Shown here: piece after piece, positions 50,249 through 52,929 of the stretch
Layout of the letters: every line of letters starts with the position of its first letter
Numbering within the stretch: the first letter of the stretch is position 1
Source: a virus
Strand: one strand, 5' to 3'
IMG/VR virus record: IMGVR_UViG_3300050026_000261
Location: 4,703-68,702 of that record
Length of the DNA stretch: 64,000 nt
Notes under the pieces: generated by a model
Told to the model about the DNA's origin: nothing
The model's input: only the letters and a program-made list of their open reading frames with translations
Databases searched by the model: none
Position numbers and translations under genes: made by a program

Positions 50249-50427
50249 AGATGCCTGGCTCAAATATCCTAAAACTTCGGATGCGGATGGAGTCATTGCG
50301 GATTTTGTTACTGCGGACGGGGGAGCAACTAGGGCTGGATCACCCGGACACTTTGAGGATAAGTCAACGATTTGACAGGGCGCATAGTCAGTTTGAAATA
50401 GCGAAGAGGGAAGCGGGGTAGGGGAAA

Positions 50428-52929
50428 ATGGAGAAACTGAATATTTATACATCGAACCGCATAATTATGCATATGCCCAAGGGCGCTCTCTCACAAAGCA
50501 CCAACGATTTCCTATCCGTGGTCAAAAGTGAGAACACGATCCCCAACCCCGCCTACCAGGAGGCGCAGAAACGGGGCCGGTGGCTAGGCAGAATCTCATC
50601 TGTGATCCCATTGGTGCAGATCGAGCCGCACGGCATATCGTTGCCCAGGGGCTATGCTTATAGGCTGCTGCAGTTGGCAAAGCATTTCGGGGTGGAGTAT
50701 TGCTTTGAGGATGTGCGCAGGGAATTGCCCATGGTGCTGTACCGGTCAAAAATTCAGCTCAGACCATATCAGAAAATAGCGGTCGAGGGGATGCTAAAGG
50801 GCACCCAGGGCGTTTTGGTCAGCCCCGCCGGCAGCGGAAAAACCGAATCCATGCTTGAGGTAATCGCCCGGGTGGGGCAACCTGCTATCTGGCTCACCCA
50901 TACCAAGGAACTGGCAGAACAGGCGGCGGCCAGGGCAGAGTCTCGCTTAGGTATCCTCCGGAGCGAGATCGGCATGATCGGTGATGGAACTTACCGTGTA
51001 GGGGAAATGCTGACCATTGGCATCTTGCAGACACTCTGCCGGATGGATCTGAAAAAACTGGCCGGGTTGTTTGGTTTATTGATGCTAGATGAATGCTTCC
51101 CAGCAGGAACGCTGATTGATGGAAAACCCATTGAATCTATCAAACTAGGAAATGTTGTTACTGCTTGGGATGAGCGCAATCAGCAAGTAACTCAAGGCAT
51201 TGTTGCTGAAACGCTTAAAAGAAGAGCCCCATCTTTGTTGGTTCGCGTTCATGCTAGCGGCAAAAATGTAGTCTGCACCCCAAACCATCCATTCTTAACG
51301 AAAGATGGCTGGAGAGAAGCAATTGGCCTAAATCTAGGAGAGGAGTTGCTTTATGAAGCCTGTTCTGAAGGCATGCCCGAAGTGTGGCAAAGTAAGGATG
51401 ACAAGCCCGGAATCAGAATTATGCAAAAAATGCAGGGGAGAAACAACTCGATACAACAACAGAGTGTTTGCTCTTTGCAGTTGTTGCAAAAGAATTGTTG
51501 TAATTTCGGAAAAAGTGAAAAGAGATCAGTTTCGGGATACGGGGCTAATTTATTGTTCGGAACAATGCAAGAAAGCATACCTGCACGAAGTCAATTCCAG
51601 GACCATGACCAAAACCAACAAGAAGTACGGTTCGGCCATGATGGCCAACAGAGATCCACATTTGACACCGGAAACGAGGGCCAAACTGAGTGCTTCCCTC
51701 AAAGCCAGGGGATGGAAGCCACCAATTCAGGGCGGCAATGGTCGAGGGCTAACAGTGCCGCAAGCCAGTCTTGCCAGCGTCTTGAACTGGCCAACAGAAC
51801 TAATAGTTCCAACGAAGATAAAGAGACCCAGCAGATATCCGACCTGTTACAAGATCGACATTGCCAATTCAGGGTTGAGGATCGGAATAGAGATCGATGG
51901 CCACTCTCATTCTGCCCGCAAACTCCTCGATCAGAAGAAGGATACCTTCCTGTCTGGCTTAGGGTGGACAATATTGAGATTCTCCAACCAGGTAGTGACG
52001 GAACATTTGGAGGATTGTGTCCAGATGGTCATGTCTACAATTTCGAAGTTGCAGACTACCACACCTACACAGCAAACGGGTTCATAGTTCACAACTGTGC
52101 GCATTGCCCAGCCGAAACCTATGCAGCAGTGGTTGACCAGTTCCCCGCCCGGTGGCGCTATGGATGCTCCGCGCAAATTGTCCGGTCAGATGGTTTAGAA
52201 GTGCTTACTGAGCGTTTCATCGGCCCCATTCTGCACACTGTACCAAGGACAGCAGTTGAACTGTCGGGTGGCGTCATAGTACCCCGGCTAAGAACCATAA
52301 AAACTGAAACAGTTTCAGAAAGTTTCAGCCAGCATGTGAAAAGAACAGAAGAATGGGAACGCCTTTGCGGGGAAGCCCGGTTAAACAATACCAGAGAGCC
52401 AAGGAAGCCGCAAATGAACTACAACGCAATTATGAGCGACGTAATCAACGACTCTGAACGCAATCACCTGATCATCCAGACATTGATCCAAGAGTGCCCG
52501 GGACATTTTTCACTAGTTTTAAGCGAAAGAGTCGATCATTGCCAAGGGTTGAACGCTATTTTACAACAGACATTTCCTGAATTAAGATCGGACATTGTTC
52601 ATGGCAAACTAGCGGCCAAGAAGCGGGAAACAGTAATTGAAAGTATGAAAAGTGGAAATCTGGATGTACTGTTCGCCGTTGACCTGGCAAAAGAGGGGCT
52701 GGACATCCCCCGGCTGGACAGGCTGTTCTTGGTGGCCGGGGGGAACAACGAAGCCGAGACTGAGCAGAAGGTTGGACGGATACAAAGAGGATTTAGCGGA
52801 AAGAGAGATGCGTTTGTGTTTGATTTTGTGGATGAATGTATCCCGGTGCTGGCAGCGCAGTTTTGGACGCGGAAGAAGGTGTACCAGAGGTTAGGGATGA
52901 TCGGGAATAGGGAAAGGCAGGTGGGGTAG
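50428..52929 (+). CDS. SF2 (UvsW/ResIII-like) helicase containing an intein
   Basis: LRPYQ, SPAGSGKT, DE|intein|CAH, KEGLDIPRL, QKVGRIQR, FDFVD. Confidence 0.92.
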   Translation: MEKLNIYTSNRIIMHMPKGALSQSTNDFLSVVKSENTIPNPAYQEAQKRGRWLGRISSVIPLVQIEPHGISLPRGYAYRLLQLAKHFGVEYCFEDVRRELPMVLYRSKIQLRPYQKIAVEGMLKGTQGVLVSPAGSGKTESMLEVIARVGQPAIWLTHTKELAEQAAARAESRLGILRSEIGMIGDGTYRVGEMLTIGILQTLCRMDLKKLAGLFGLLMLDECFPAGTLIDGKPIESIKLGNVVTAWDERNQQVTQGIVAETLKRRAPSLLVRVHASGKNVVCTPNHPFLTKDGWREAIGLNLGEELLYEACSEGMPEVWQSKDDKPGIRIMQKMQGRNNSIQQQSVCSLQLLQKNCCNFGKSEKRSVSGYGANLLFGTMQESIPARSQFQDHDQNQQEVRFGHDGQQRSTFDTGNEGQTECFPQSQGMEATNSGRQWSRANSAASQSCQRLELANRTNSSNEDKETQQISDLLQDRHCQFRVEDRNRDRWPLSFCPQTPRSEEGYLPVWLRVDNIEILQPGSDGTFGGLCPDGHVYNFEVADYHTYTANGFIVHNCAHCPAETYAAVVDQFPARWRYGCSAQIVRSDGLEVLTERFIGPILHTVPRTAVELSGGVIVPRLRTIKTETVSESFSQHVKRTEEWERLCGEARLNNTREPRKPQMNYNAIMSDVINDSERNHLIIQTLIQECPGHFSLVLSERVDHCQGLNAILQQTFPELRSDIVHGKLAAKKRETVIESMKSGNLDVLFAVDLAKEGLDIPRLDRLFLVAGGNNEAETEQKVGRIQRGFSGKRDAFVFDFVDECIPVLAAQFWTRKKVYQRLGMIGNRERQVG
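51094..52095 (+). mobile_element. Intein (334 aa) inserted in helicase motif II
   Basis: Block A CFPAGTLI, block B CTPNHPFLT, blocks F/G VYNFEVADYHTYTANGFIVHN followed by +1 Cys. Confidence 0.95.
51353..52087 (+). CDS. Zn-finger + DUF559/Vsr-like endonuclease nested in the intein in the +1 frame
   Basis: SD AGGAG 7 nt before ATG; CPKC, CKKC, CSCC, YCSEQC; YKIDIA...IGIEIDGHSH...DQKKDTFL..LGWTILRFSN. Confidence 0.85.
   Translation: MKPVLKACPKCGKVRMTSPESELCKKCRGETTRYNNRVFALCSCCKRIVVISEKVKRDQFRDTGLIYCSEQCKKAYLHEVNSRTMTKTNKKYGSAMMANRDPHLTPETRAKLSASLKARGWKPPIQGGNGRGLTVPQASLASVLNWPTELIVPTKIKRPSRYPTCYKIDIANSGLRIGIEIDGHSHSARKLLDQKKDTFLSGLGWTILRFSNQVVTEHLEDCVQMVMSTISKLQTTTPTQQTGS

Follow-up and report, generated by a model that had tools for sequence, protein, structure and literature searches.

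A predicted homing-endonuclease gene overprinted in the +1 frame of a phage helicase intein

How can a single run of nucleotides be read as the middle of an intein in one frame and as a nuclease gene in the next, and do the two readings belong to one mobile element? The question is raised by a phage helicase gene in a 64,000-nucleotide (nt) stretch (hereafter the window) of the IMG/VR record IMGVR_UViG_3300050026_000261, a 68.7-kb virus record that is rated complete and comes from peat metagenomes. All coordinates are positions in this window unless prefixed by the identifier of another locus (L004 and so on). The helicase, of superfamily 2 (SF2), is interrupted in motif II by an insert with the features of a class-1 intein, and a gene predicted to encode a DUF559/Vsr-fold nuclease lies inside this insert in the +1 frame. 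We consider it probable (roughly 0.8) that the two form a composite mobile element, in which the homing endonuclease is a gene of its own, overprinted on a class-1 intein in motif II of a phage SF2 helicase. Three observations carry this reading: the architecture of the locus, the selection that acts on both frames and the recurrence of the layout.

An intein and a nuclease gene in the same nucleotides

In the helicase frame, the open reading frame (ORF) is divided as follows, with model confidence given as pLDDT, the predicted score of the local distance difference test:

50428-52929, + strand: helicase precursor ORF including the intein, 833 amino acids (aa); SF2 helicase with ResIII/DEAD in the N-terminal half and Helicase_C in the C-terminal half (Pfam)
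50428-51093, + strand: N-extein, ending ...LMLDE, the first half of motif II
51094-52095, + strand: class-1 intein (predicted), 334 aa, with Cys1, T62-x-x-H65 and H333-N334, then Cys +1
51094-51363, + strand: Hint N-lobe, intein residues 1-90, AlphaFold2 pLDDT 94-98
51364-51945, + strand: nuclease gene as read in the helicase frame (intein residues 91-284), in the model an unstructured linker, which would be removed with the intein
51946-52095, + strand: Hint C-lobe, intein residues 285-334, with strands at 285-297, 313-319, 324-327 and 330-333
52096-52929, + strand: C-extein, beginning CAHCP

The intein begins CFPAG, has TPNHPF as its block B and ends in VHN followed by Cys, and it is inserted in frame between ...LMLDE and CAHCP, within helicase motif II. 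As the C-extein starts with CAHCP, splicing would restore DE-CAH, a DExH box, and DEAHH stands at the same spot (DE/CAH here, with the insertion point marked by a slash) in an intein-less relative of the helicase of Vibrio phage CP-T1. The columns of the splice residues (Cys1, T62/H65, H333-N334 and Cys +1) are invariant or nearly so across 30 relatives (alignment A2). The insert matched the PT-HINT profile at 36.6 bits (cut-off 27.7) and the Intein_splicing profile at 35.3 bits, slightly under its cut-off of 35.8, and is the sole Hint match within the virus record. In the AlphaFold2 model both lobes are beta-rich, with block-mean pLDDT of 80-96 over residues 281-334, while residues 91-280 have block-mean pLDDT of 39-55 and zero secondary structure. 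No Pfam model other than Hint was matched by the intein frame, including the linker at 51364-51945. On these residues and this modelled fold the insert is a class-1 intein, for which splicing activity is predicted. In a canonical bifunctional intein the endonuclease would be read in the intein frame, whereas here the nuclease lies in the +1 frame and the intein frame has neither a domain match nor modelled structure between the lobes.

The +1 frame over the same nucleotides contains:

51336-51345, + strand: Shine-Dalgarno-like AGGAGAGGAG, 7 nt before the nuclease ATG; the helicase frame there reads part of ...LGEE...
51353-52087, + strand: overprinted gene for a predicted homing endonuclease, 244 codons plus TAG, +1 frame
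51374-51568, + strand: two Cys4 zinc-ribbon-like modules, C8/C11/C24/C27 and C42/C44-45/C68/C72
51845-52039, + strand: DUF559/Vsr-fold catalytic domain, nuclease residues 165-229 (Pfam)
51946-52084, + strand: stretch of about 46 codons folded and conserved in both readings, as the last strand and helices of the nuclease and as strands of the Hint C-lobe

A TAG at 51335-51337 closes the nuclease frame 5 codons upstream of the ATG, and the TAG that ends the gene stops 8 nt before the splice junction. The product has Cys pairs at residues 8/11, 24/27, 42/44-45 and 68/72, of which those of the second zinc-ribbon-like module are kept family-wide (C72 being near-invariant in alignment A1), while the first module was found in a subset of the family. 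Residues 165-229 matched DUF559 (PF04480) at 40.9 bits (E 2.1e-10; gathering cut-off 20.6), and D169, E180, H186, D193 and K196 are invariant, and D182 nearly so, in A1. The nuclease was modelled with a mean pLDDT of 81, and the best Foldseek matches of the model are 3hrl (DUF559), 3r3p (I-Bth0305I) and 1vsr. At the level of sequence, the A1 family profile matched the DUF559 structure 3hrl (E 3.7e-9). The +1 ORF is therefore predicted to be a DUF559/Vsr-fold nuclease with two zinc ribbons. The initial annotation had described, from the letters of the window, a 334-aa intein in helicase motif II whose own frame is stop-free and without recognisable motif mid-way, as well as a +1 ORF that has an AGGAG Shine-Dalgarno sequence 7 nt before its ATG, encodes four Cys-pair motifs and a DUF559/Vsr-like nuclease, overlaps even intein block F and stops 8 nt short of the junction; each of these features is present as described, with 0 stops in the intein frame and profile matches there to Hint models alone.

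Selection on both reading frames

At a +1 offset, a stop in the helicase frame requires a nuclease codon with T at its third position, followed by one that begins with AA, AG or GA, and the helicase frame can consequently stay open by synonymous choice alone. This is the pattern found in the window, where T occupies the third position before AA/AG/GA codons in 0/71 cases, compared with 49/172 for the other codons of the nuclease ORF (Fisher p 7e-9). Across 5000 shuffles of the nuclease ORF among synonymous codons, the helicase frame held a mean of 14.1 stops and never 0, the number observed, which bears out the earlier claim that both frames stay open by more than chance. The third frame over the nuclease ORF contains 22 stops. 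Similarly, thirteen other embedded copies have 0 helicase-frame stops (4.7-15.3 expected from shuffles), and, pooled over 71 distinct embedded copies, T precedes AA/AG/GA codons in 0/3879 cases versus 25% elsewhere. Two free-standing copies of the nuclease gene, L015 and L016, are a natural control for this avoidance of stops: the corresponding frame contains 27 and 29 stops (28 and 22 expected), and T fills 35-40% of the stop-making contexts. These codon patterns indicate that the helicase frame is kept open by selection and that the double coding is itself selected. The element is a tidy case, from nature, of dual coding over a long stretch, where one frame is accommodated at no other expense than the choice among synonymous codons.

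The nuclease frame shows a signature of a different kind. Among 15 pairs of copies that differ at 11-21% of sites, differences fall in the order position 3 > 1 > 2 of the nuclease codon in 13, and in the remaining two position 3 is still highest, with position 2 equal to or one above position 1. For example, L010 and L011 differ at 18, 16 and 62 sites at nuclease codon positions 1, 2 and 3, respectively. Nuclease codon position 2 is the third position of the helicase frame. Column conservation in the middle of the overlap is about 0.6 in the nuclease frame versus about 0.37 in the helicase frame, which points to the nuclease frame as the one under protein-level selection there.

These results bear on the alternative that the nuclease gene is a decaying relic, an inserted gene that is now a pseudogene, with the helicase frame alone maintained and the +1 ORF open by chance. 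The homing-cycle model does predict decay of an endonuclease after fixation, and searches for a close relative of the window helicase without an intein are in keeping with such a history, as none was confirmed by the C-extein search in IMG/VR and blastn of the whole helicase gene against isolate phages returned only 164-185-nt pieces in 3 records. However, no embedded locus examined has a disrupted +1 ORF, the catalytic residues are invariant, the substitution pattern is that of a coding frame, and the nuclease model is confident, whereas the third frame is riddled with stops over the same stretch. We regard a relic as very unlikely.

Recurrence of the layout and the shared 3' end

In IMG/VR, 85 loci were retrieved, and a second scan confirmed 200 stretches, of which 80 were kept. 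In 83/85 loci the nuclease occupies the +1 frame of a long ORF without stops; this host ORF is open for more than 400 aa in 82 of these, and the 83rd is cut by the end of its contig. As the longest ORF in the nuclease frame is at most 1071 nt in these loci, in none of them do nuclease and host gene share a frame. L015 and L016, the two loci without the layout, are free-standing genes and have no intein. On contigs of bacterial genomes, where 232 stretches were confirmed and 46 of the 80 kept loci were examined (the 36 long-match loci in full, and 10 out of 44 that matched in the DUF559 domain only), the embedded +1 layout was found in 31 of the 36 long-match loci and not in the other 5, and the DUF559-only loci examined proved to be ordinary cellular DUF559 genes, which were not counted. 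Among isolate phages, tblastn with the nuclease returned 41 records, and all matches listed fall under one large coding sequence (CDS). In the five records that were fetched (Pseudomonas MR14, Corynebacterium phi673 and Vibrio CP-T1, 1.194.O and 104E43.1), the match begins 1 modulo 3 away from the first base of an open helicase CDS. As read from these nucleotide sequences, more than a hundred loci, drawn from many bacterial phyla, have the layout.

Such recurrence is difficult to reconcile with an artefact, in which the nuclease would really be in frame with the intein and would appear out of frame through two compensating indel errors in the assembly. Two frame changes about 700 nt apart could come from indel errors in a low-coverage metagenome assembly, and the initial annotation had itself named compensating indels, or stops in homologues, as the observations that would overturn it. 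However, a contig from another sample and study (X2) has 0 differences and 0 gaps relative to the window over 51014-51494 and 51976-52167, as has a second (X3), from a further sample and study, over 51282-51670; the two contigs span both frame-switch zones. The same +1 offset in 83/85, 31/36 and 5/5 independent loci, with the helicase frame stop-free and the nuclease intact in the 83 from IMG/VR, and the stop in the nuclease frame ahead of its ATG argue in the same direction. In addition, no in-frame fusion of intein and nuclease was found among 428 longer candidates (proteins of 428-2000 aa), which is weak evidence. Gap-free independent contigs together with the recurrent layout exclude compensating sequencing errors, and we assign an artefact next to no probability.

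The nested CDS is unannotated in all five fetched phage records, as was anticipated when it was suggested that standard gene callers would miss it. In 5.8 billion predicted proteins, 43 near-length relatives of the nuclease were found at E <= 1e-10, many of them on short contigs, compared with 200 and 232 stretches at the level of DNA in the two nucleotide collections. Together with the missing annotations, this indicates that the nuclease family is largely invisible to protein-based surveys.

The hosts are SF2 helicases of several subfamilies, interrupted in motif II, together with one clamp loader, and the junctions are of the types DEC...HN/CHH, DEC...HN/SSILK and DEAH/C...HN/CYKN (junctions marked by slashes). 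In the clamp-loader case (L019:2-1129), the nuclease has the same +1 layout within an intein of a DNA_pol3_delta2 gene, so the element has changed host gene at least once. Individual hosts vary further. One helicase (L011:1227-4382) has two inteins by Pfam, an in-frame LAGLIDADG intein near Walker A and the overprinted one in motif II; another (L072:1827-5300) is fused to an N6/N4 DNA methylase domain; and two host proteins (L063 and L088) are about 2200 aa long with SNF2-related domains.

At the 3' end of the nuclease gene both readings appear to matter as protein. The nuclease frame of 51946-52084 reads ...GLGWTILRFSN...CVQMVMSTISK..., the Hint frame reads ...WLRVDNIEIL...GHVYNFEV..., and both are conserved and modelled with high confidence. 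The conservation of the two frames converges over the last 30 columns (0.57/0.52 and 0.75/0.73), and only over 51934-52135 could the DNA of the gene be aligned with that of phages phi673 and MR14 (70-72%). The position of the end is itself kept: among the 76 loci in which both intein ends were located, 73 have a nuclease stop that precedes the junction by 8-53 nt; these ends were found by regular expressions, which failed in 6 of 82 loci and gave implausible bounds in 3 (L067, L070 and L085). At this end, some 46 codons serve both proteins. The idea that the intein acts as a shield, removing a nonsense-frame peptide from the host protein, accordingly fits the middle linker, which is modelled as disordered, but fails for the last ~46 codons, where each frame yields a folded part of its own protein.

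The overprinting may be of long standing, an entanglement that has become stable and not a passing accident of insertion, although we put this forward tentatively and would sooner bet against it. The ~46 shared codons, and the start of the nuclease in the last strand of the Hint N-lobe, mean that the nuclease gene could not be cleanly deleted without breaking the intein and, with it, an essential helicase. If true, this entanglement could explain why the layout is the normal state across phages of many bacterial phyla, and across several SF2 helicase subfamilies and a clamp loader, and the family would partly escape the usual decay of endonucleases that leaves mini-inteins.

Translation, mobility and known relatives

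From the composite-element reading we infer the following course of translation, splicing, cleavage and homing. Ribosomes translating the helicase would read through the nuclease gene and produce a disordered linker of about 195 residues between the Hint lobes, and protein splicing would take out lobes and linker together, restoring DE-CAH. The nuclease would be made separately off the same mRNA, by internal initiation at the AGGAG-N7-ATG at the end of the Hint N-lobe, as a protein of zinc ribbons, a helical region and a DUF559/Vsr-fold catalytic domain. On the model of other homing endonucleases, it would then cut the intein-less helicase alleles of co-infecting phages, and repair would copy the element in.

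An alternative route to the nuclease is programmed +1 ribosomal frameshifting from the helicase frame, which would join N-extein, Hint N-lobe and nuclease in one protein. Immediately ahead of the ATG of the nuclease (51340-51355) the helicase frame reads GAGGAG-TTG-CTT-TAT, which we take to resemble the prfB +1 site, with its Shine-Dalgarno-like element, 3-nt spacer and CUU-U. Yet the CTT is not followed by a stop or rare codon at which the ribosome would stall, relatives do not conserve the CTT-T context (it is absent in L013, for example), and only 5 codons of the nuclease frame are open upstream of the ATG. In several relatives, such as L007, L012, L065, L067, L080 and L082, a stop stands immediately before the ATG and leaves no room for a shift. 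The stop 5 codons upstream in the window, or abutting the ATG in these relatives, argues against entry by frameshifting, to which we give a very small probability, and independent production of the nuclease by internal initiation is the route we would expect. A 223-nt contig from a metatranscriptome library is identical to 52026-52248 and was not counted as evidence of expression, as such libraries can contain DNA and a contig is no proof that a gene is expressed.

Mobility is suggested by a precise presence/absence polymorphism. The helicases of the Vibrio phages CP-T1 (L004) and vB_VchM-138 (L090) are 96.4% identical and differ by an exact 1059-nt intein; vB_VchM-138, without the intein, has DE-A-HH where CP-T1 has DE-intein-C-HH, such that Cys at +1 in the occupied allele corresponds to Ala in the empty one, and the last extein codon differs synonymously between the two. 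The distances of Hint N-lobes and of nuclease cores correlate across loci (r 0.43; 0/999 permutations reach it), which fits movement of intein and nuclease as a unit; the comparison omits L067, L070, L085 and L082, includes a contribution from shared phage ancestry and is not a proper co-phylogeny. The nuclease family, its near-exclusive link to one intein family and the CP-T1/vB_VchM-138 polymorphism together suggest that the element homes, and the polymorphism is also an indirect pointer to its nuclease cutting the empty allele.

The nuclease might instead be expressed without being a homing enzyme, serving in phage competition or in attack on host DNA, with the intein a harmless landing site. 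Cellular DUF559 proteins are not homing enzymes, and the two free-standing relatives (L015:1531-2151 and L016:2785-3417) lie beside helicase genes, not inside them, each sharing 17 nt with the beginning of a helicase gene that has no intein; these relatives may reflect the ancestral state, or else another means by which helicase genes are targeted. However, the nuclease is almost always tied to one intein family and one kind of site, near-identical helicases differ by the exact element, the distances of lobe and nuclease correlate (in part through shared ancestry), and the fold resembles that of the proven homing enzyme I-Bth0305I, as described in PMC3239194. A non-homing role is thus unlikely, although it is the most serious of the rival accounts.

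Several results weigh against the composite mobile element. The substitution counts were drawn from close pairs that belong largely to a single clade, and they are not independent; the Foldseek E-values of the nuclease model are weak (1.8e-3 and 5.7e-3; top matches 1.8e-3 to 3.7e-2). No more than 18 of 67 distinct members have a core Shine-Dalgarno motif ahead of the first ATG, against a background of 13.8% and with the first ATG taken crudely as the start, so the strong site of the window is not a family rule; a consensus scan found no sigma-70-like promoter inside the intein, with counts at the level of shuffled sequence. As no intein-less close relative was found, recent mobility of the window copy is unsupported. 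Broken or mis-assembled copies also exist, as shown by P0046, a 391-aa database protein that runs from the N-extein through the Hint N-lobe and helicase-frame linker and then continues in the nuclease frame to the nuclease stop, and that is either a broken (frameshifted) copy or the product of an assembly indel.

The initial annotation knew of no described class of this kind, which does not hold, since out-of-frame and antisense endonucleases of inteins are already reported for actinobacteriophages in a preprint by Gosselin, Arsenault and Gogarten (bioRxiv 10.1101/2025.01.02.630785), and the title of another names an out-of-frame homing endonuclease in a cyanobacterial dnaX intein (bioRxiv 10.64898/2026.09.14.751524). 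In its available text, the first preprint describes an endonuclease VII-like gene in frame 3 and LAGLIDADG or VSR-like genes in antisense, calls such layouts rare, gives DNA polymerase, minor capsid, terminase and thymidylate synthase as hosts, cites Gorbalenya 1998 for the antisense case and proposes that a free-standing endonuclease gene invaded an intein (10.1101/2025.01.02.630785). Those inteins and the one described here share an endonuclease out of the intein frame, a stop-free intein frame and a middle without recognisable structure. The window likewise has an intact endonuclease ORF that lies within the bounds of the intein but out of its frame, and no stop interrupts the intein frame. 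In contrast to the layouts set out in that text, however, the present gene is a sense-strand +1 gene of the DUF559/Vsr fold in motif II of SF2 helicases, its 3' end doubles as the Hint C-lobe, and it is found at over a hundred loci from many bacterial phyla. In the dnaX case the host gene is cellular, and neither the term 'Vsr' nor 'DUF559' was found for that preprint, which we cite by its title. The kind of arrangement is therefore already described, but a sense-strand +1 DUF559 nuclease in helicase motif-II inteins was not found in the literature searched (the supplementary tables of Gosselin et al. lay outside its scope), and nor was a functional double use of Hint C-lobe codons or a frequency for the family.

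Three further systems are similar in part, as far as their published descriptions were drawn on. The "fractured genes" of Dassa et al. 2009 (PMC2677866) have the parts of a split intein on either side of a free-standing gene for a Vsr-like or GIY-YIG endonuclease; they likewise place a separately translated Vsr-like gene between intein halves in phage DNA-metabolism genes, and the 3' end of the endonuclease gene overlaps the downstream intein part by 6-69 bp. In those genes, however, the host is divided into two ORFs that need trans-splicing, while the present host frame is unbroken in the window, as in 83/85 IMG/VR loci, and, as it runs through the nuclease gene with 0 stops, splicing would take place in cis. 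I-Bth0305I, the prototype EDxHD homing endonuclease (Taylor et al. 2011, PMC3239194; PDB 3r3p), is similarly a multidomain phage homing enzyme with a C-terminal Vsr-fold domain and is the second-best Foldseek match of the nuclease model (probability 0.99; template-modelling (TM) score 0.55 on the target). The fold is similar and E, D, H and D residues are conserved in the present nuclease, but 3r3p was matched neither by the single sequence nor by the A1 profile, which matched only the DUF559 structure 3hrl; in addition, I-Bth0305I is encoded in a group I intron in recA and has NUMOD-like motifs in its N-terminal DNA-binding part, where the present nuclease has zinc ribbons. Lastly, a hidden out-of-frame HNH endonuclease has been described in a phage methylase gene (Arsenault et al. 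2025, PMC11855218), in the ShiLan insertion, which also lacks host-frame stops; that insertion has no detectable splicing domains and the extra peptide is apparently retained, whereas the Hint lobes should remove the insertion here.

The locus lends weight to the idea that inteins acquire endonucleases through capture of free-standing genes, and that a gene captured in this manner can persist stably for a long time. In practical terms, the family is a source of many candidate site-specific nucleases directed at helicase motif II, as well as inteins that would tolerate a disordered insert of about 200 residues.

The helicase ORF matched phrog_16, DNA helicase (E 6.2e-51), in the PHROG database. 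Just 5' of it, a 56-aa ORF at 50251-50421 has a weak Spo0E-like match (E 1.2e-4) that lies under the Pfam cut-off. The upstream neighbour of the helicase is a calcineurin-like phosphoesterase, and downstream lie an MmcB-like protein and a phage metallopeptidase, all on the + strand; given these functions and the common strand, the neighbourhood looks like a replication and repair module.

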